Below, piece by piece: positions 1 through 21,693 of a stretch of DNA of 32,000 bases. The translations under genes were made by a program, and so were the position numbers. The stretch is taken from NCBI RefSeq assembly GCF_000092105.1, contig NC_014148.1:1740001-1772000 (forward strand), read 5' to 3'. Position 1 is the first letter of the stretch. Every line of letters begins with the position of its first letter. The notes below the pieces were generated by a model. It ran no database searches. It was not told where the DNA came from and worked only from the letters and a program-made list of their open reading frames with translations. The DNA is from Planctopirus limnophila DSM 3776. GTDB lineage: Bacteria > Planctomycetota > Planctomycetia > Planctomycetales > Planctomycetaceae.

Positions 1-1345
<1,345 letters not shown>

Positions 1346-1400
1346 GATGCAGTTTCTTCAATGGGGCTCAATCTGATGCGCAATTAAGAGTAAACGACCA

Positions 1401-1440: not shown

Positions 1441-1715
1441 ATCATACTGAAAATCAGCTGCATGGGGCGTCACTGATCTTCAGAGTCGTTCGGTAGTGTA
1501 AGATCAAGATGCTTAGGAACTTGAAAGGAGTTGCATGAAGGTGAGAATCATTCTCGATCGAAGCGAACCTGCGTTCGTTGAGATTGTCCAAGGCGGCACT
1601 GTTGATGTGAATCGCGATCGTCGATGTGTAGAAAACGGGCGATCACCTCAAGTGAAGAGTCGATGACAGTTGAGATCGTCGACTTGTTTTTAGAATTTGC
1701 TGCAGAAAAGAGATT

Positions 1716-2174
1716 GTGATGGATCACCCATTATCGAGGGAGCAGGAGGCAGGCGATGTGTTACGCGTGACCAATCGCTTGCTCATTCCACGTTCTGAGT
1801 TCCGCTGGACTTATAGCCGCAGTTCGGGCCCGGGCGGGCAGAATGTCAATAAGGTGAATTCCAAAGCAACGATGCACTGGCCGGCGATGATATCCAAGTC
1901 GCTCCCTGTGGAGCTTCGAGTGAGGCTGCGTCACGAGTTTGGGAATCGCTTGAATAATGAAGGCGAACTTGTCATTGCCAGCGATGAGCACCGAGATCAG
2001 AAGCAGAACATCCTGGCGTGTGAGCAGCGGTTAGTGCAGATTCTCAGAACAATCTCGATTCCACCGAAGGTTCGCCGCCCAACAAAGCCTTCGAAGGCCT
2101 CCAATGCCCGCCGATTGCAGGAAAAAAAGCACCGCGCCAACATCCGCAACAGCCGGCGGATCGATCCGACTTAG
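1716..2174 (+). CDS. arfB: Peptidyl-tRNA hydrolase ArfB (alternative ribosome-rescue factor B, class-I release-factor domain)
   Basis: This 152-aa ORF carries the GGQ motif in the context SSGPGGQNVNKVNSKA. It ends in a basic tail (KVRRPTKPSKASNARRLQEKKHRANIRNSRR) like E. coli YaeJ/ArfB. The start is GTG at 1716 followed directly by ATG at 1719. Confidence 0.85.
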   Translation: MMDHPLSREQEAGDVLRVTNRLLIPRSEFRWTYSRSSGPGGQNVNKVNSKATMHWPAMISKSLPVELRVRLRHEFGNRLNNEGELVIASDEHRDQKQNILACEQRLVQILRTISIPPKVRRPTKPSKASNARRLQEKKHRANIRNSRRIDPT

Positions 2175-2262
2175 CAGTGGCTGAACTCTTGTCGAATCAT
2201 CATTTCTCATGCGGTGTCACCGCAACTTAATGCCATCAACAGATGAGCATGAAGGTGCTGGC

Positions 2263-3621
2263 TTACTGTGGGTTGCCACTGCTGAAAGTTCGCTGGAGTT
2301 CTTCCAGGGAGGTTTTGCCTTCAACCACCAGACGCAGACCATCTTTCTGGAGGGTCTGCATTCCCTCCTTCCGCATCTGAGCTTTAATGGCGTCGGCAGT
2401 GGGGGACTGCTTGATGACCTCCTTCATCTCCTCAGTCCCTTCGAGCATTTCGAGCATGGCGACTCGGCCGTAATAGCCAATACCGCCACATTTGCCGCAA
2501 GGCTCGCCTTCCTGCCCAGTCTTTTCATCGACAGGAGCTTCCCCCTTTTTGTAAAGCACTTTGGTTTCGGGAGGGAGGCCGACTTTTGCCAGAAGCTTAG
2601 GGTTAGGGCGGAAAGCTTCTTTGCATTCTTCGCACAATTGCCGGATGAGTTTTGAGCTGATAACAAGTTGAACAGCATCGGCCACTTTGGCGGGATCACC
2701 GACCCAGGCGCAAAGCTGTGCCACGGCAGAAGCAGCATCTTTGGCAGGCATTTCTGCCATCAGAGTCAAAGTATCGCAGTTATCCACCAAGGTCTTCGCG
2801 TATTCGGCATCTTTAATCGGATCGACGAAGAGAACATCAGCCTCGGCCCGCTGGACACGAGCGATCGTTTGCACGATCGAATCCCCTTCCTGGCTTTCGA
2901 ACTTCGTGCAATTGATGATTTCGCGTGAGCCCAGATTGGCAACGGACATGCATGAGTACATGTACATGTCGATGCCGCGAATGGCGGCAAAGGTTGTGGT
3001 TGTGACACCACTCCCGGGAGGGCCGGCAATAATCACGAGACCTTTTCGATTGGGTGTTTTTTCGCGAATCTTCTGACGGACAATGCCTGGAAAGCCCAGT
3101 TCGTCGAGCGTATTGAGCTTGGCTTTCAAGTCGCGAAATCGAAGAGTCAGCCTCTCGACACCTTCCGCCTGTGGAGTAGTTTCCACAGAAATTTCCCACG
3201 GATGGCCTTCGTAGTCGCTCTTGAGACCACCTTGCTGAGTCGTGGCTTTGTTTTTGGGATCTAGCCCAGCCAGCAGTTTCATAATCTGAGTTATGGCTAC
3301 TGCCTGTGGCCTGGGCATACGGGAGCCGGCATAAACGACTCCATCCACCGAAAGTGTCGATTGGGCCCGCTCACCTTTGATGTCAATCCGCACCATTTCC
3401 GCTCGACGCGAAAGCGCATCGGTCACGAATTCTTTGGCAGGAATCAAACCAATCTGGGCCAGCTTGGCGTTGGCCTGCAGATCGGCTGATTTTCCATTAA
3501 GGGCCCCCTGAAATGAGACCAGTTCAATTTCTTCGTCTTCGTCATGATCTTCACCCCCACCCTGGTCTGCGGGTTTTTTGCCGAACATGCCGAAAATCAT
3601 GGACGATCCTTTGCCAAACAC
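2263..3621 (-). CDS. GspE/PilB-family (type II/IV secretion ATPase-like) protein with degenerate nucleotide-binding motifs
   Basis: This 452-aa ORF is collinear with GspE/PilB C-terminal domains: GLVIIAGPPGSGVTTT (Walker A position), ADVLFVDPIKDAEYA (Walker B position), LTLMAEMPAKDAASAV (His-box position), ISSKLIRQLCEECKE...CGKCGGIGYYGRVAMLEML (tetracysteine plus GYxGR), and GMQTLQKDGLRLVVEGKTSLEEL. The start is ambiguous: GTG at 3621, or ATG at 3600 or 3588. Confidence 0.85.
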   Translation of the reverse strand: MFGKGSSMIFGMFGKKPADQGGGEDHDEDEEIELVSFQGALNGKSADLQANAKLAQIGLIPAKEFVTDALSRRAEMVRIDIKGERAQSTLSVDGVVYAGSRMPRPQAVAITQIMKLLAGLDPKNKATTQQGGLKSDYEGHPWEISVETTPQAEGVERLTLRFRDLKAKLNTLDELGFPGIVRQKIREKTPNRKGLVIIAGPPGSGVTTTTFAAIRGIDMYMYSCMSVANLGSREIINCTKFESQEGDSIVQTIARVQRAEADVLFVDPIKDAEYAKTLVDNCDTLTLMAEMPAKDAASAVAQLCAWVGDPAKVADAVQLVISSKLIRQLCEECKEAFRPNPKLLAKVGLPPETKVLYKKGEAPVDEKTGQEGEPCGKCGGIGYYGRVAMLEMLEGTEEMKEVIKQSPTADAIKAQMRKEGMQTLQKDGLRLVVEGKTSLEELQRTFSSGNPQ

Positions 3622-3770
3622 GCAATCAAACGCACGTATGTCAGAAGCTGGCAGCCAGAACGGGAGGCGAGCTGTTGCCAGCTCATTCTAAACGACAGGG
3701 GTAACCAATCACACGCTCATTTATCATCGAGAATTTCCATCACGCAGACTTCTTGAAGTCTTGGAGAGCT

Positions 3771-4661
3771 CTACGACAGCAAGCCGTAGGTCTTGAGAGT
3801 CTGGACGAGTTTGGCTTCTTCGGCTGGGCCGAGGGGTGTCATCGGCAGCCGGAGTTCACCCGTATCGCGCCCCAGCAACTTCATGGCAGCCTTAATGGGA
3901 ATGGGATTGGTCGCCAGCCCCAGCAGATCGCGGCACAACGTAAAGAGCTTGAAGTGCATCGCCTGGGCTTCAGCAATCTTGCCAGCCTTCCAGGCAGCCA
4001 CCAGTTTGAGCATGTCCTGAGGAACGATGTTCCCGACGACCGACACAATGCCGCTGCCCCCTATCGAGAGGAGAGGCAAAGTCAGGCTGTCATCTCCTGA
4101 AAGCACCGTCAGATTTGTTTCCGCGAGGAGTCGCGAAGCCTGATCCATCGACCCTGTCGCTTCTTTGATAGCCACAATCGAAGGGATCTCGGCCATGCGG
4201 GCAATCGTCTCTGGCTCCATATTCTTAGCGGTTCGGCCGGGAATATTGTACAGAATGATGGGAATATCGACGGCTGTGGCGACGGCTTCGAAATGACGGA
4301 AAAAGCCTTCACCGGTCGGCTTGTTGTAATAAGGGGCGACCATCATCGCTCCGTCGGCACCGACCGACTTGGCGAACTTTGTGAGCTGGATCGCTTCCTG
4401 TGTGCTGTTTGAACCAGTACCCGCCATGACGCGAATGCGTCCAGCCGCGTGTTCGCAGGTGAGAGCGATCACACGCTCGTGCTCTTCATGCGTCAAAGTG
4501 GGGCTTTCGCCAGTCGTACCTACCGGGCAAATGCAGTTGGTGCCTGCTTCGATCTGAAAATCAATAACCTTCTTCAGAGCCACCTCATCCAGACGATCAT
4601 TTCGAAACGGAGTCACGATCGCGACGGTCAAACCAGCAAACTGTTCGCCTTTGCGAGGCAT
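3771..4661 (-). CDS. dapA: 4-hydroxy-tetrahydrodipicolinate synthase
   Basis: The sequence [10 protein letters not shown]...[26 protein letters not shown]...YNKP...ILYNIPGRT...IVAIKEATG is a typical DapA pattern. The track ORF starts at TTG 4670. I prefer ATG at 4661, which is preceded by GAGGG about 9 nt upstream. Confidence 0.9.
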
Positions 4662-4833
4662 TTTCAACAACCCTCAAGAAAGCCTGATACTCGCAGTCAA
4701 TGACATTCGAGGACGGGTATCAGTAGTAAGTGAAACCAAAAATCTCGATGTAACGATCGGGCCTGAAAGTGAAATTGTCCGAGAGAAACCCCGTAATGAC
4801 CAGTCCTATCCGGGATCATCAGGCCCTTTGTGT

Positions 4834-5769
4834 TTACGAATTGCTGGTACGGTTGCGCCAATCGATATTGGACATTTCTGCAAGTGCCAGCATCAATGCG
4901 TGAGTCCCATTGCGGCCAAAACCTTTGGCTTTCACTGAGAGATACAATTGTTCTGCGAGTGCCAGACCAGGTAAGGAAAGACCCATCCGGCGGGATTCGG
5001 CCAGTGCAATTCCCATGTCTTTGATGAAATGTTCTACGAAAAATCCCGGGTCGAAATTATTCGCAATCATGCGTGGGCCCAGATTCGAAAGCGACCAGCT
5101 TCCGGCTGCACCTGGCCCGACCGATTGCATCACTGTATTAAGATCCAGGCCGGCTCTATAACCATATAACAAGGCCTCGCAGACACCGATCATGCCTGTG
5201 CTGATCAGAATCTGATTGACCATTTTTGTATGTTGCCCAGCCCCGGGCCCCCCTTGATGCACAATTGTTTTCCCCATGACGGAAAACAATGGCTGCAAGG
5301 CGTTGACCACTTCTGCGTCTCCTCCCACCATGATGGAGAGGGCTGCATTCTTCGCACCGATATCTCCACCGGAAACAGGAGCATCGACAGCATGGACATG
5401 CTTCGCCTTGGCTGCCTGATAGATCTCAACGGCGAGAGAAGGTTCGCTGGTCGTCATATCGACGAGGACGGTGTTAGCCGCTGCCCCGGCGAGAGCACCT
5501 TTGGTCCCGAGTGTGACTTCCCGGACATCCGACGGAAAACCGACAATTGAAAAGACGACGTCGGAATTGGCGGCGACTTCCGCAGGTGTGGCTGCCCACT
5601 GAGCACCTCGCGAAATCAGATCAGCCGCTTTCTCCGGACTGCGGGTGTAAATTGTGGCGGTATAGCCGGCGTTCATCAGGTGACCGACCATGCTGCGGCC
5701 CATGACCCCAGTGCCGATCCAGCCGATACGTGTCTTTCCGGGAGCAAACTCAAGCACTGTAAACCTCAT
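4834..5769 (-). CDS. NAD(P)-dependent oxidoreductase, 3-hydroxyisobutyrate dehydrogenase / 2-hydroxy-3-oxopropionate reductase family
   Basis: This 311-aa ORF has an N-terminal Rossmann motif ([17 protein letters not shown]). It also has the family blocks DAPVSGG...A..G.LSIMVGG and KMVNQIL...EAL. Confidence 0.85.
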
Positions 5770-5979
5770 TCCTCAGTCGTGAATTTCTGGACGAGCATCA
5801 ACTGGCGATTTTTTAGTACATCATAATCTTTTGCAGTGTGGCAGTGTACCGTTCGTGAATCTCACCGTCATCAGTCCGCCCGGTGATATCCTGGTCAAAT
5901 GCATCATTCCCAGCGGTTCATCACTGGCTGTAGTCAAAAAAATTGCTGATGGAACCCCATGCAGTTCAGCCGAATTGGA

Positions 5980-6010
5980 GGCGAAAGTGGCGAAAGTACA
6001 ACTTTTCGCC
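5980..6010. repeat. Tandem 9-mer (GGCGAAAGT x2) followed by its near-complement
   Basis: GGCGAAAGT occurs at 5980-5988 and again at 5989-5997. ACTTTTCGCC at 6001-6010 can pair with either copy, giving about 9 bp with one bulged T. Confidence 0.5.
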
Positions 6011-6138
6011 AAGTTTCTTCAGTCAATTCCCGATGTCAAAAGTACGGGGGAGATTTCGTGGTCAGGATGACCGGCGAAATTTGCCGCTCGAATGTGGTCT
6101 GGAATCGGGCTGTTAGCTCGTGCGGAGATGGATGTCCG

Positions 6139-6525
6139 ATGGGAATGCTCAGTCCCGAACTTATGCTCGCCATTGAACAGGCGGCCCACGAAATGTTGAT
6201 GTGGGTAGGCTTTGGCACGCTGGTTGGGCTGTGTGGCAAAGCCATCATGCCCGGGAAAGATCCCGGCGGTGCTGTGGGGACTGTTTGTATCGGGATTTCC
6301 GGGAGTGTGATTGGTTGCGGATCTTTACTGTTGTGGGATTCGTCACTGCGAATCTCGCCTATCAGTGTTAGTGGATTTATAGCCGCTACTGCTGGAGCTT
6401 TTGCCCTCCTCTTGTTTTACCGGATTCTGTCGAACTCGTACTTCATTGTGGAAGCGGTCGATGGCGGAGATCTCAACAGTGGTGAGCGGGTGACTTACCG
6501 TCGCCGTCGCCGAACAGCCGCTTAG
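6139..6525 (+). CDS. GlsB/YeaQ/YmgE-family (transglycosylase-associated) small membrane protein
   Basis: The sequence is hydrophobic and Gly-rich (MLMWVGFGTLVGLCGKAIMPGKDPGGAVGTVCIGISGSVIGCG...FIAATAGAFALLLFYRIL), as in this family. The track ORF starts at 5959, but I prefer ATG 6139, which has GGAGA about 10 nt upstream. The part upstream of 6139 does not look like protein. Confidence 0.7.
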   Translation: MGMLSPELMLAIEQAAHEMLMWVGFGTLVGLCGKAIMPGKDPGGAVGTVCIGISGSVIGCGSLLLWDSSLRISPISVSGFIAATAGAFALLLFYRILSNSYFIVEAVDGGDLNSGERVTYRRRRRTAA

Positions 6526-6644: not shown

Positions 6645-8411
6645 GTGACTGAGTCCATGACCTCTTTTTCGTCGCATTTCTCAGCCAACGGTCAACCCGG
6701 GCCCCAGTGGCTGTCTGGCCAGGCCAACGACTCATTGCCAAGCTGCAGGCAGGGCGTGTTTCGAGTTCTCTATCAACTGAATTGTCCCAAGAACTCTGCA
6801 GAAGCTGTTGCCAGAGATATTGCACTCGAACAGACGGTCGAGGTGCCAGAGTCATTGATCACGGATGAAGTGATCTGGCAGAACTTCGCTGGCCAGGTGG
6901 TCTCTGTTCGATCAGTCTCTGAGCATGTTCAGGTGGCTTCGATTGAATACCACGCTCATCTGGCGAGTGGACACTTGGCGCAGTTGATGAACCTGCTGTT
7001 TGGAAATGTCAGTCTGAAACCCGGGGTTCGATTATTAGATGTCGAGTTTCCGGAATCTTTTCTCAGTGGATTGGCTGGGCCTAAACTTGGGATTGAAGGT
7101 CTCCGGTCAGCCTGCGGCGTTTGGGAGCGTCCTCTGCTGGCGACCGCCATCAAGCCTAAGGGGTCGTCGGTCGCGCAACTGGCACAGATCGCGGGAGAGT
7201 TTGCGGCTGGGGGCGGTGATCTCGTCAAGGATGATCACAATCTTGCAGAGAGCACGTTCGACGCCTTCCGAACTCGTGTCGAAGCCTGCCAGCAAGCCGT
7301 GCTTTCAAAGACTCCTCCAGGACAAAAATGCCTTTATTTTCCCAATCTTTCCGGGACGCTGCGTGATCTGGAACGGCAGGCAGCATTTTGTGTGGAATCC
7401 GGCATTCGGGGTGTCCTCGTGGCACCTATGATTGCCGGTCTCGAAACCATCCGCCATCTGTCGGAATCTTTTCCCTTGGCGATACTTGCCCATCCGACAA
7501 TGTCCGGTTCATTCCTGCAGGAAGGGCAGGGCCTATCGCATGCATTCTGGCTTTCGACCATGATGCGTCTGTGCGGTTGTGATGGAACTGTGTTCCCCAA
7601 TACGGGAGGAAGGTTTTCCTTCTCACAGGCAGATTGTCTGTCGATCGCAGACGCGGCACGAAAACCTCTCGGACGATTGAAGAGTTGTTTCCCGGCACCG
7701 GCGGGAGGCATGTCGTATGCATCGCTTCCAGGAATGGCTCGCGACTACGGCCCGGACACGATCTTTCTGGTCGGAGGCGGACTACTCGGTTACTCAGAAA
7801 ATCTCGCAGACAGCACGGCGGCATTTCGCTCCAGAATCGAAGAACTGTTCCTCACGAATCAAGCGTCTCAGAATTCCAATCCGGATCCTCGTGGCCAGTA
7901 TGTTTCTTCGTGTGAACTGCCAGCAGCGTATCCACCAGGAGCTCAAAATTCTGGCATCGCCGAGTATGCTCAGGGAAATGAAAAGTCAGGAATCTCGTCT
8001 TTAGATTCTGCCAATTCGATCGTGACTCAACTGCTCAAGTTTTTGCCTGGTTATCGATGGGAAAAACGCGAAGTTTCGGTTTACAAACCTAATGCTGGCT
8101 TGCCATTTGCGCATGTGGATCGACAGGAACTGATTGGGAAGTTTGGAGAGTCAACGGCATTTGATGTGCGATACTTCGAACTGGCGCCCGGTGGCTATTC
8201 GAGTCGTGAAAAGCATTTCCATACGCATGTCGTAATTCCCGTTCGCGGCCAGGGTCAATTGGAGTGCCAGGGACAGATTTTTCCTTTGCAGCACCTGGAT
8301 ATTGCTTACGTTCCGCCACTGGCTGTGCATCAATTGTCCAATCCAACCGATGAACCATTTGGTTTTCTGTGCATTGTTGATCATGATCGTGATGCGCCGA
8401 TGGCCCCTTAA
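6645..8411 (+). CDS. RuBisCO-like protein (form IV RuBisCO large-subunit homologue) fused to a C-terminal cupin domain
   Basis: This is a 588-aa ORF. Residues ~36-403 carry RuBisCO large-subunit landmarks: FGNVSLKPGVRLLDVEFP, GPKLGIEGLR, ERPLLATAIKPKGSS, GGGDLVKDDHNL, ILAHPTMSGSF, FPAPAGGMSY and FLVGGGLLGY. A ~55-aa low-complexity linker follows. Residues ~458-588 are a cupin with motif 1 (GGYSSREKHFHTHVVIPVRGQG) and motif 2 (DIAYVPPLAVHQLSN). The start is GTG 6645 or ATG 6657. Confidence 0.9.
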   Translation: MTESMTSFSSHFSANGQPGPQWLSGQANDSLPSCRQGVFRVLYQLNCPKNSAEAVARDIALEQTVEVPESLITDEVIWQNFAGQVVSVRSVSEHVQVASIEYHAHLASGHLAQLMNLLFGNVSLKPGVRLLDVEFPESFLSGLAGPKLGIEGLRSACGVWERPLLATAIKPKGSSVAQLAQIAGEFAAGGGDLVKDDHNLAESTFDAFRTRVEACQQAVLSKTPPGQKCLYFPNLSGTLRDLERQAAFCVESGIRGVLVAPMIAGLETIRHLSESFPLAILAHPTMSGSFLQEGQGLSHAFWLSTMMRLCGCDGTVFPNTGGRFSFSQADCLSIADAARKPLGRLKSCFPAPAGGMSYASLPGMARDYGPDTIFLVGGGLLGYSENLADSTAAFRSRIEELFLTNQASQNSNPDPRGQYVSSCELPAAYPPGAQNSGIAEYAQGNEKSGISSLDSANSIVTQLLKFLPGYRWEKREVSVYKPNAGLPFAHVDRQELIGKFGESTAFDVRYFELAPGGYSSREKHFHTHVVIPVRGQGQLECQGQIFPLQHLDIAYVPPLAVHQLSNPTDEPFGFLCIVDHDRDAPMAP

Positions 8412-19782: not shown

Positions 19783-20313
19783 GTGCACGGGTTGGGAAGG
19801 GAGAGATCATTGGCGTCAAACGATCACTGGCGTATCGAAGTCGCCGCCTCTCAATCGCCGTGGACTCATCCCCATTGGGTTGAATGGATCAAGTGGGTAG
19901 TAGCCTCATATGCTCAATGGACGGGACAATCCCTTTCCGATGCAGGCCCGGAAGAATTTCCCAGAGTGCTGTTCCATGCCCCGTTTGTGCTGGTTTCGCA
20001 TGGAAAGGAAGCTGACCCAGTCCTGTGCTACGGCAATCAGACAGCTCTGAAACTGTGGGAAATGAGCCTCTCTCAGTTTCTCGAAACACCTTCACGATAT
20101 ACGGCCGAACCGATGCATCGTGATGAACGGGCACAACTCCTCGAACGCACGACCAGGTACGGATTTGTCGACGATTACCAGGGAATCCGCATCTCTGCGT
20201 CGGGCACTCGATTTCGCATCCACCAGGCGACGGTCTGGAATGTGATCGACGCAGAGGGAACCTATCAGGGACAGGCCGCCATGTTCCACGAATGGACACC
20301 AATTGGTTCGTAA
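19783..20313 (+). CDS. MEKHLA-domain (PAS-like) protein
   Basis: The sequence FHAPFVLVSHGKEADPVLCYGNQTALKLWEMSLSQFLETPSRYTAEP...RAQLLERTTRYGFVDDYQGIRISASGTRFRIHQATVWNVIDAEGTYQGQAAMF matches my memory of stand-alone bacterial MEKHLA proteins. The start is uncertain. It is either GTG 19783 or, perhaps better, TTG 19810, which is preceded by GGGAGAG. Confidence 0.65.
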   Translation: MHGLGRERSLASNDHWRIEVAASQSPWTHPHWVEWIKWVVASYAQWTGQSLSDAGPEEFPRVLFHAPFVLVSHGKEADPVLCYGNQTALKLWEMSLSQFLETPSRYTAEPMHRDERAQLLERTTRYGFVDDYQGIRISASGTRFRIHQATVWNVIDAEGTYQGQAAMFHEWTPIGS

Positions 20314-20349: not shown

Positions 20350-21438
20350 TCAGGCACTCAGCACTTTGCGGACGTTGGCTTCCGTAACCGGCTGAATAAT
20401 GCCCTTTTCCGTGATGATCGCCGTAATGAGTTCCGCCGGTGCGAAATCGAATGCCGGGTTGTAAACATTGGCACCTGTGGGGGCGAGCTGGACACCCCCA
20501 GGATGAGTAATCTCAGTGGAGACTCTTTCTTCGATGGGAATTGATTTCCCTTCGAGAAGCGTCAGGTCGAATGTGGAGGATGGAGCTGAGACATAAAACG
20601 GAATTTTGTGGTAATGACATAACACCGCCACGCTGTATGTCCCAATTTTATTGGCGGCATCGCCACGGGCGGTGATGCGATCAGCCCCGACAATGGCGGC
20701 GCCAATCCGGCCTTCCTTCATGACCTGCCCGGCCATGGAATCTGTAATGAGAGTACAGGGGATTCCTCTTTGCATGAGTTCCCACATGGTCAGTCGGGCC
20801 CCCTGAAGCAAAGGGCGGGTTTCATCAGCATAAACATGAATCTGCTTGCCAGCGGCATGCGCATGAGCCAGAGCGGCGAACGCTGTTCCATCACCGGCTG
20901 TGGCTAATCCACCTGTATTGCAGTGTGTCAGAATCCCGCTGTTGGCAGGCAGCAGCGAGGCTCCGAATTCTCCCAGTCTGGCACACATGGCGCGGTCTTC
21001 AGTTTCAATGGCCTGTGCCTCAACTAACAATCTTTTCTGAAGATCGGCAGCACTCATTTGTGGGTGATCTTTGGCAACTTGCTCCATGCGCTGGATGGCC
21101 CAGAAGAGATTGACAGCCGTGGGCCGACTTTCGGCCAGGTATCTGGCCACCTTGGCCAATTGTTGATCGAACTCTCCTCGCGAGACATCTGCCCCTGGCT
21201 GAAAGAGTGGTTGCAGGCCGACGACTATTCCATAGGCCGCCGCCACACCAATCGCAGGAGCGCCGCGAACTTTGAGCTGCTTGATCGCCTCCCAGATGTG
21301 TTCCACGGTGTTCCCATCGATATGCTTTAACTGCGTGGGCAATACCGTCTGGTCGATCAGCTTCAGTGATCCGGTCAGTTCGTCCGCTTGCCACTCCAGA
21401 GCACGATAACTGGGCAACGACACAGGATTGGACACCAT
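20350..21438 (-). CDS. mtnA: S-methyl-5-thioribose-1-phosphate isomerase (methionine salvage)
   Basis: There is strong block similarity to MtnA: KVRGAPAIGVAAAYG, SRPTAVNLFWA, ILTHCNTGGLATAG, ADETRPLLQGARLTMWELMQRGIPCTLITDSMAG, IVGADRITARGDAANKIGTY, IPIEER and NPAFDFAPAELITAIITEKG. I prefer ATG 21438 (MVSNPVSL...) over the track start at 21483. Confidence 0.85.
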   Translation of the reverse strand: MVSNPVSLPSYRALEWQADELTGSLKLIDQTVLPTQLKHIDGNTVEHIWEAIKQLKVRGAPAIGVAAAYGIVVGLQPLFQPGADVSRGEFDQQLAKVARYLAESRPTAVNLFWAIQRMEQVAKDHPQMSAADLQKRLLVEAQAIETEDRAMCARLGEFGASLLPANSGILTHCNTGGLATAGDGTAFAALAHAHAAGKQIHVYADETRPLLQGARLTMWELMQRGIPCTLITDSMAGQVMKEGRIGAAIVGADRITARGDAANKIGTYSVAVLCHYHKIPFYVSAPSSTFDLTLLEGKSIPIEERVSTEITHPGGVQLAPTGANVYNPAFDFAPAELITAIITEKGIIQPVTEANVRKVLSA

Positions 21439-21693
21439 GGGGAATTCTCTTTGGCTTGGCAGAACATTCAGGAAGATTCTCAAGAGTTGGTACGCTAACC
21501 GAAATGACTAAGACGTACCAACGAAGGCCACTTTCCCAGCGGTTTGAAGTTCAAAGTCGCCGATTTCAATCGTGGTCGTTCGGGACGAGACAAACTTTTT
21601 CGGAAAGAGGTGAACCCGAACCCGACAGTTGATAACATGCAAATCTGTTCATGGAACATGAAATTGGGATGTTTTGACCTCTGGAGTCTGGCC

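Follow-up and report, generated by a model that had tools for sequence, protein, structure and literature searches.

A conserved PilB/GspE-like protein without canonical catalytic residues in Planctopirus limnophila and its relatives

Can a PilB/GspE-type extension ATPase part with its catalytic residues and still be kept by selection? A gene of Planctopirus limnophila DSM 3776 raises this question. It lies in a 32,000-nucleotide stretch of contig NC_014148.1 (assembly GCF_000092105.1, positions 1,740,001 to 1,772,000), hereafter the window, where the list of open reading frames (ORFs) gives it as 2263..3621 on the minus strand, 452 aa from a GTG at 3621; by gene order it is Plim_1369. A first-pass annotation made from the sequence alone had described an orphan GspE/PilB homologue with substituted catalytic motifs and proposed that it is retained as a non-catalytic scaffold or regulator. 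In what follows, residues are numbered in the 452-aa frame counted from GTG 3621, and all features within the gene are on the minus strand. We conclude, with high confidence, that the product is a long-kept, selected protein without the canonical catalytic residues, and it is best read as a pseudo-enzyme paralogue of the PilB/GspE-type extension ATPases that has kept their two-lobed fold.

The assignment to the GspE/PilB family held up. The Pfam T2SSE profile (PF00437) matches aa 63-444 with 128.8 bits against a cut-off of 24.9 (E=2.6e-37), and the best solved relative by sequence is Thermus PilF (E=6e-42), followed by Geobacter and Myxococcus PilB and Vibrio GspE. Homology had been thought to be limited to the C-terminal ~260 aa; instead, the match extends over ~385 aa and spans the whole core of N2D and C-terminal domain (CTD). 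Structural relatives, Foldseek and the alignment with Geobacter metallireducens PilB (PilB_Gm) place the N2D domain at aa 63-165 (3127..3435), while Pfam, the PDB matches and the structural model place a C-terminal RecA-like ATPase-fold domain with degenerate motifs at aa 190-447 (2281..3054). An AlphaFold2 model built from 46 orthologues reached a mean predicted local distance difference test (pLDDT) score of 80.6 and a predicted template-modelling (pTM) score of 0.74; its best Foldseek matches were PilF (5oiu) and PilB (5tsh/5zfr), at E~1e-32 and a template-modelling (TM) score of ~0.7 on the target, with PilT, PilU and DotB clearly lower.

The structural parts singled out by the first-pass annotation, namely the CxxC...CxxC tetracysteine, GYYGR and the C-terminal GMQTLxxDG helix, are all kept in the window protein. 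To follow them across the family, we used 85 orthologous loci of Planctomycetaceae, drawn from species-representative genomes and metagenome contigs, in each of which the ORF covers at least 90% of the query. In the family alignment, the Zn tetracysteine module CxxC-x41-CxxC occupies aa 327-386 (2464..2643), including an invariant R327, and its cysteines C330, C333, C375 and C378 are present in 85/85 loci. PilB and GspE carry this Zn-binding motif, whereas PilT is without it. The C-terminal helices GMQTLQKDGLRLVVEGKTSLEELQRTF (2281..2373) are likewise highly conserved, as judged from the family alignment and the conservation profile.

The active site is where the protein departs from its relatives. 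In G. metallireducens PilB, the contacts comprise Walker A, the Mg2+-coordinating Asp-box E357, the catalytic E395, R257, R271 and R286, and an inter-chain R455 whose contact is specific to the PilB/GspE clade (McCallum et al. 2017, PMC5424180); the Walker motifs, the catalytic Glu, two arginine fingers and the Asp-box Glu have been reported as completely conserved in PilT-like ATPases (PMC5424180). We checked the register residue by residue against PilF and Geobacter PilB, validating the offset on E395, T411, H413, H420 and R455, and tabulated each PilB_Gm contact position in the 85 loci. The Walker A, Walker B and His-box strings picked out at first stand where they had been read, and the Asp box, then unrecognisable, reads ANLGS. 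Walker A is GPPGSGVTTT (2995..3024), in which K331 has become V206 (Val in 63, Thr in 14 and Leu in 8 loci; Lys in 0/85). ANLGS (2926..2940) stands for EDPxE, with E357 replaced by S232 (Glu in 0/85), and DVLFVDPIKD (2809..2838) stands for the Walker B consensus DhhhhGEhRD, with E395 replaced by P268 (Pro in 79/85, Glu in 1/85). The His box is AEMPAKDA (2734..2757) for (S/T)TLHTNDA, with H420 replaced by P292, and just upstream of it H413 has become T286; His occurs in 0/85 loci at either position. Alignment with PilF and Geobacter PilB thus puts Val, Pro and Pro or Thr where the catalytic Lys, Glu and His belong, and the orthologues share the loss. The proposed loss of three motifs is therefore confirmed and is in fact wider, extending to the Asp-box Glu and two of the three N2D arginines: R257 is G132 (Gly in 80 loci, Ala in 5) and R271 is S145 in the window protein (Arg in 20/85 loci).

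Two contacts remain: R286 is kept as R161 (Arg or Lys in 79/85) and R455 as R327 (85/85). Read against the PilB contacts, what survives belongs to the fold and the oligomer interface, and the retained R455 and R286 equivalents are compatible with ring assembly. With the Lys of Walker A, the Glu of the Asp box, the catalytic Glu, both His and two of the three N2D Arg lost, ATP hydrolysis is not expected of the protein, and its ATP binding is probably poor. Since the Zn module and the R455 equivalent are both present, it is nonetheless a member not only of the T2SSE superfamily but also of the PilB/GspE structural clade. Its NCBIfam scores were 154.5 bits for the GspE equivalog (TIGR02533, cut-off 630.25) and 143.9 bits for the PilB equivalog (TIGR02538, cut-off 675.65), far under both cut-offs, and it is therefore a T2SSE family member rather than a GspE or PilB equivalog. 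In addition, Pfam gave no match to the T2SSE_N (N1D/GSPII, MshEN) domain in the protein even at E<=1; this is the domain through which GspE and PilB bind GspL or c-di-GMP. With the catalytic features, the N1D domain, the pil/gsp operon context (below) and the equivalog thresholds all failing, the public labels 'GspE' and 'PilB' should not be used for it.

Unusual motifs of this kind might also mark a gene in decay, an artefact of sequencing or assembly, or a true ATPase placed in the wrong register, and nothing beyond the motifs themselves speaks for any of these. A misregistered alignment hiding a K, E or H was ruled out by the offset validated on Geobacter PilB E395, H413, H420 and R455. The ORF is uninterrupted in 85/85 loci from independent assemblies, with no frameshifts or stops, the same class of substitution is fixed family-wide in a register validated on multiple anchors, and the fold prediction is confident. 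Protein identity with P. hydrillae JC280 is 97%, and with a metagenome-assembled genome (MAG) from a pond it is 99%. The ratio of nonsynonymous to synonymous substitution rates (dN/dS, Nei-Gojobori) came to 0.031 in comparison with a MAG of 99% identity, 0.026 with Planctopirus hydrillae and 0.048 with a relative of 87% identity; values for the neighbouring dapA in the same comparisons were 0.017 and 0.037. The gene is under strong purifying selection, as is dapA, and with its dN/dS of 0.03-0.05 and its intact orthologues, decay, artefact and misalignment are refuted, with practically no probability left to them. That the gene is a kept one was thus rightly judged from the single sequence. The alignment, the orthologues and the dN/dS values likewise support a pseudo-ATPase with a non-catalytic role, from which we infer a scaffold or regulator.

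If catalysis is no longer what selection maintains, constraint should be sought elsewhere in the protein. We compared per-column information in the family with that in 50 canonical representatives (with K, E and H) on the same profile, and the two conservation profiles showed a rank correlation of only rho=0.08. In the canonical enzymes, Walker A (percentile 0.82), Walker B (0.76) and the His box (0.73) are the most conserved regions, while the Zn module stands at 0.33, with only the N2D-CTD linker lower (0.30). In the family, by contrast, the Zn module (aa 327-386) is highest at 0.67, followed by the C-terminal helices at 0.59, and the former catalytic motifs are average at 0.46-0.53. Constraint has been relocated rather than relaxed, to the Zn-module loop, the C-terminal helices and an N-terminal motif described below. 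Within the x41 Zn loop, E335, A336, F337, P339, N340, K342-L344, K346-P350, K354, Y357, K359 and K367-G369 are invariant. Unlike the loop of PilB and GspE, which is variable, that of the pseudo-ATPase is ~12 residues longer and highly conserved; in Vibrio EpsE, exchanging the x29 residues between the Cys pairs for their counterparts from a different species has no effect (Rule et al. 2016, PMC5061722).

The residues left around the P-loop bear on a further explanation, in which the protein is a non-canonical nucleotide-binding sensor or switch, or a slow ATPase, whose P-loop glycines, Thr-Thr, R161, R233, E290 and K294 rebuild a ligand pocket. G200, S204, G205, T207 and T208 are indeed invariant or nearly so in the family, R161 is Arg or Lys in 79/85 loci, and new charges have been fixed at R233 (Arg or Lys in 81/85), E290 (84/85) and K294 (Lys or Arg in 71/85), of which R233 and K294 recur in another degenerate clade. 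Canonical PilB itself can signal depending on its nucleotide state (review, PMC11656802). However, no member has either the Walker A Lys or the Mg-coordinating Glu, and in PilF, mutation of the Walker A Lys lowers the affinity for an ATP analogue (review, PMC11656802). Moreover, Walker A is only average in the family (percentile 0.53 vs 0.82 in canonical enzymes), and the kept glycines could be purely structural. We therefore regard a nucleotide switch or slow ATPase as unlikely.

The N-terminus, where an N1D/GSPII domain would be expected, depends on the choice of start codon. The true start is most likely ATG 3600, giving a coding sequence of 445 aa plus stop (2263..3600), because orthologues start at MxFG, the 100%-identical cluster representative in the database (P0001) is 445 aa long, and a Shine-Dalgarno-like AGGA lies 7 nt upstream of this ATG (3607..3610, from sequence reading). 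The in-frame extension from GTG 3621 (3601..3621) is, from orthologue N-termini and the length of P0001, probably untranslated; its seven residues (MFGKGSS) resemble an imperfect duplicate of the real N-terminal MIFGMFGKK. An M-[IVA]-F-G motif occurs in all 45 other sequences of the family alignment and opens 44 of them; the sole exception is P0096, whose called N-terminus extends further ahead of the motif. From this start, the family shares a 55-aa N-terminal segment of its own, in which the layout runs from M-[IVA]-F-G-(x)-F-G-K-K through 8-12 acidic residues to [IV]-x-L-V-x-F-Q-G-A-x-N-G-K-x-x-D-L-x-A-N-A-R-L. In the window protein, these parts correspond to MIFGMFGKK (3574..3600; family consensus M-[IVA]-F-G-x-F-G-K-K, with G11 and F13 invariant in alignment A1), a poly-acidic linker PADQGGGEDHDEDEE (3529..3573) that is conserved in composition and predicted to be disordered and flexible (pLDDT <50 for aa 1-30), and a conserved segment IELVSFQGALNGKSADLQANAKL (3460..3528) that, by the family alignment and the AlphaFold2 model, occupies the place of the N1D/GSPII domain. 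The model folds this last segment, with good confidence, as a strand (aa 36-40) and a helix packed on N2D. The first-pass annotation was right that a GSPII_E domain is absent and that the region includes an acidic stretch, and wrong in taking it for mere low complexity, given the conserved MxFGxFGKK motif.

An exhaustive profile search against 1.84 billion representatives recovered a family proper of ~10 full-length clusters at 50% identity, scoring 424-586 bits, with the next hit at 299 bits. A scan of one genome per species found a relative in 357 genomes, and the best 80 of these 357 all belong to Planctomycetaceae/Planctomycetota, including Planctopirus, Schlesneria, Planctomicrobium and Planctellipticum.

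Does the genomic context point to a function? The locus order in P. limnophila is Plim_1366 (oxidoreductase), 1368 (class I release factor), 1369, 1370 (dapA), 1371 (reductase), 1373 (RuBisCO-like) and 1374 (priA). As the first-pass annotation had observed, no pilus gene is nearby: neither the 32-kb window nor the neighbourhoods of 83 orthologous loci hold a linked pil/gsp gene (pilC/gspF, pilM/gspL, pilins or secretin). The description of the gene as an orphan is apt in this respect but does not hold fully, because dapA, already named there as a neighbour, lies directly upstream in most orthologous loci. In the window annotation, dapA (dihydrodipicolinate synthase; Plim_1370) is found at 3771..4670 on the same minus strand, and it precedes the gene, again in the same orientation, at 51 of the 79 informative loci, with a median gap of ~150 bp and no overlap. 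Upstream of dapA, and often syntenic, is an NAD-binding 3-hydroxyisobutyrate/2-hydroxy-3-oxopropionate reductase-like gene (4834..5769, minus strand). The convergent arfB-like gene on the other side, which encodes a class I release-factor domain (1716..2174, plus strand), is not conserved outside Planctopirus. Among the family representatives whose contigs were read, the three most divergent also have dapA upstream; the linkage is therefore ancestral, and its interpretation as shallow lineage retention was dropped. The remaining 28 of the 79 loci are without dapA linkage and each has a different upstream neighbour, which argues against obligate linkage; clustering of neighbouring ORFs in 83 loci recovered dapA in 46 and the reductase in 39, with no other gene in more than 10. 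From the differing neighbours of these 28 loci and the absence of any other recurrent gene, we conclude that the gene works as a stand-alone unit. Rfam gave no matches in the whole window, and there is therefore no riboswitch between dapA and the pseudo-ATPase gene; a promoter and terminator scan of 1600-6000 returned fewer sites than in shuffled sequences and was uninformative.

This synteny is an argument for an exaptation tied to dapA, whereby the protein might control or position the synthesis of lysine/meso-diaminopimelate, or connect it with the biogenesis of peptidoglycan or the cell envelope. The ancestral position of dapA in 51 of 79 loci and in the divergent representatives favours such a role, as do the lack of any linked pilus gene and the absence of the N1D domain that couples GspE to GspL. 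Yet the linkage is lost in 28 of 79 loci, each time to a different neighbour, and the ~150 bp gap without overlap means that the gene can stand alone. Transposon sequencing (Tn-seq) found dapA (Plim_1370) essential and Plim_1369 non-essential, with an insertion index of 0.10 (Rivas-Marin et al. 2023, PMC10632474). The protein has also retained the PilB/GspE-specific Zn module and the inter-chain Arg, and synteny with a housekeeping gene can be neutral. A dapA-related function accordingly strikes us as quite improbable.

Further context came from other degenerate relatives. The 150 top-scoring representatives from the profile search include many PilB-like clusters (~550-650 aa) that are also without the Lys, Glu and His, and a neighbour-joining (NJ) tree placed at least two further deep degenerate clades apart from both the canonical K/E/H clade and the dapA-linked family. 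Long branches and a sample biased by the profile make this tree a rough one, and we therefore do not claim a single origin of the degenerate clades. One of them (P0176, P0162) comprises proteins of ~580-655 aa with a P-loop A-x-P-x-G-G-L-x-T-T, a Walker B of hhhhRD and a His box of xVRAKDA; it is planctomycetal, its named matches including Planctomycetes and Thermoguttaceae. In 4/4 loci examined, its gene (X) directly follows pilT in a hisF-pilT-X-cvpA cassette (L084, 8808-11968; L086, 8771-11839; L091, 6847-9752; L092, 6838-9764), and the two genes are read as translationally coupled: the stop of pilT and the start of X overlap at three of these loci and stand 90 nt apart in L086. The PilT of L084, the one checked, is catalytically intact. 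This arrangement shows that, in this phylum, an active motor can have a degenerate PilB-like protein as its dedicated partner. The PilT-coupled clade and the window family are both planctomycetal and share the T2SSE fold, the loss of Lys, Glu and His, the kept tetracysteine, and Arg at 233 and Lys at 294; the former differs in its own ~200-aa N-terminal extension, another P-loop, linkage to pilT and a separate NJ clade.

The same search brought up two further groups. A third degenerate clade (P0199, P0200, P0203, P0205, P0210, P0228, P0266 and others), of ~550-600 aa, has a P-loop GPxGSG[VL]T[ST]T, has lost Walker B and the His box and keeps the tetracysteine; one representative is annotated as a Planctomycetota MAG. 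Separately, tandem double T2SSE proteins of ~1000 aa (P0140-P0148, P0151, P0153, P0155, P0159, P0161) are canonical in both halves (GPTGSGKTTT, EDPIEY, VGEIRD, TLHTN), an unusual instance of a fused double secretion ATPase; P0141, the one tandem cluster with source names, has a member from a Parcubacteria-group bacterium. Although they are the closest-scoring canonical sequences, we rejected the tandem proteins as close kin of the family, as they are merely consensus-like.

Canonical motors are to be found elsewhere in the P. limnophila genome. Tn-seq delineated an essential operon resembling a type II secretion system (T2SS), with Plim_0410 (E), Plim_0409 (PilT, of unclear essentiality), Plim_0408 (E), Plim_0407 (F) and six planctomycete-specific genes, and a further essential gene for PilM, Plim_0076 (Rivas-Marin et al. 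2023, PMC10632474). Given these T2SSE, PilT, GspF and PilM genes, and further paralogues such as Plim_0082 and Plim_1933, canonical motors and platforms exist in trans. We accordingly favour, tentatively and at a probability somewhat short of even, a machine-associated, non-catalytic adaptor or regulator of type IV pilus (T4P)-like machines acting in trans, mainly because the PilT-coupled degenerate clade pairs with an active motor in cis. Partner binding would then fall to the three newly constrained surfaces (Zn-module loop, C-terminal helices and N-terminal motif), through which the protein might dock as a ring or mixed-ring subunit onto T4P/T2SS-like parts encoded elsewhere, such as the PilC/GspF platform, PilM or active PilB/PilT paralogues; once docked, it could serve as an adaptor, a placeholder or a brake.

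Several observations weigh against this role. No pilus or secretion gene is linked to the family in any of the 79 informative loci, and the recurrent neighbours are dapA and the reductase only, which point elsewhere if anywhere. The protein is not an obligate subunit of the T2SS-like machine, because Plim_1369 is non-essential, and so dispensable for laboratory growth, while the T2SS-like operon is essential. Finally, the glycine-rich P-loop with Thr-Thr and one arginine finger are kept, so that some phosphate or nucleotide binding may be possible.

The adaptor reading can be extended into a wider and more doubtful proposal. Planctomycetes would keep several ancient, independent clades of PilB-derived pseudo-ATPases (the dapA-linked 440-aa family, the PilT-coupled ~600-aa clade and possibly the ~560-aa 'GSGV' clade) as an undescribed class of subunits that serve type IV filament machines without catalysis, in rings or as adaptors. 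The window protein would dock through its Zn loop and FG-KK motif on an active PilB/PilT motor or its platform, possibly that of the essential Plim_0401-0410 machine, gating extension against retraction or placing the machine during the budding cycle. We offer this in its full form as speculation, with the chances against it.

How does the protein compare with known systems? With PilB and GspE it shares the N2D+CTD core, the CxxC...CxxC Zn module, GYxGR, the C-terminal helices, and the R455=R327 and R286=R161 equivalences; it differs in its replaced active-site residues (Lys of Walker A, Glu of the Asp box, the catalytic Glu, both His and two Arg of N2D), in having no N1D/GSPII (MshEN) domain, and in lying outside pil/gsp operons and below the equivalog cut-offs. 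TadZ/CpaE of the Tad/Flp pili, a member of the ParA/MinD family whose Walker A is atypical and whose gene is part of the tad operon, acts as a docking or localisation factor and embodies the same concept of a degenerate ATPase-fold protein that serves a pilus machine non-catalytically, but it belongs to the SIMIBI ParA/MinD family and not to the PilT-like ASCE lineage. ArlH/FlaH, a RecA/KaiC-like ATP-binding partner of the FlaI motor that keeps its Walker A and is encoded in the archaellum operon, similarly illustrates a non-motor ATPase-fold partner that modulates a PilT-like motor, though from a different fold subfamily. A functional analogy for a PilB that is naturally locked in an apo-like state is offered by Myxococcus xanthus PilB, whose Walker A mutant K327A up-regulates exopolysaccharide and retains a signalling role (review, PMC11656802); this too combines a dead Walker A with regulatory output, but in an engineered motor mutant rather than an evolved paralogue.

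The remainder of the window gave several observations in their own right. Its genes encode a molybdopterin oxidoreductase, the ArfB-like protein, DapA, the reductase, a RuBisCO-like/cupin fusion, PriA, an M42 peptidase, an AddA-like helicase-nuclease and HtrA, and further MEKHLA, MtnA, ThuA, methyltransferase, HrpA, rhomboid, UDG, HAD and ROK proteins; PADLOC defence models gave no match. The N-terminal part of the molybdopterin oxidoreductase alpha subunit (2-1357, minus strand; the Plim_1366 equivalent) runs off the left end of the window, and the plus-strand ORFs 80-508 and 527-1147 are antisense artefacts with no Pfam matches. A 188-aa ORF at 5959-6525 on the plus strand, in the position of the hypothetical gene Plim_1372, has no Pfam match and, from its Gly/Ala/Ile/Leu-rich C-terminal half, looks like a small membrane protein. 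A stand-alone MEKHLA-domain protein of 176 aa (19783-20313, plus strand; PF08670, E=2e-54) represents a domain best known from plant HD-ZIP III proteins. The 588-aa ORF at 6645-8411 on the plus strand (Plim_1373) fuses a RuBisCO large-chain-like domain (PF00016, E=3e-21) to a C-terminal cupin, and an mtnA-like gene of the IF-2B family lies at 20350-21483; together, they hint at a methionine-salvage-type RuBisCO-like protein. Plim_1373 is non-essential and shared with only 2 of 45 planctomycete genomes (Tn-seq table, PMC10632474).

A search of open-access papers and bioRxiv found no description of a T2SSE-family pseudo-ATPase or of Plim_1369, which does not prove that none exists. The pseudo-enzyme family is thus apparently undescribed, and it forms part of a broader degenerate PilB-like expansion that is at least partly planctomycetal. 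PilB/GspE motors are treated as obligate ATPases, and the residues of their Walker motifs, Asp box and His box have been reported to be fully conserved in the PilT-like family; the proteins described here provide a natural, long-lived exception maintained under strong purifying selection. This exception offers a means of separating the structural and regulatory roles of these motors from their catalytic role, and it flags the Zn-module loop as a candidate interaction surface. The pili, fibres and crateriform structures of planctomycetes and their essential T2SS-like operon are poorly understood; as P. limnophila is genetically tractable and Plim_1369 is non-essential, the hypothesis of a machine-associated pseudo-ATPase is directly testable in this organism. 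More broadly, regulation of type IV filament machines by pseudo-ATPases may be general in Planctomycetota.

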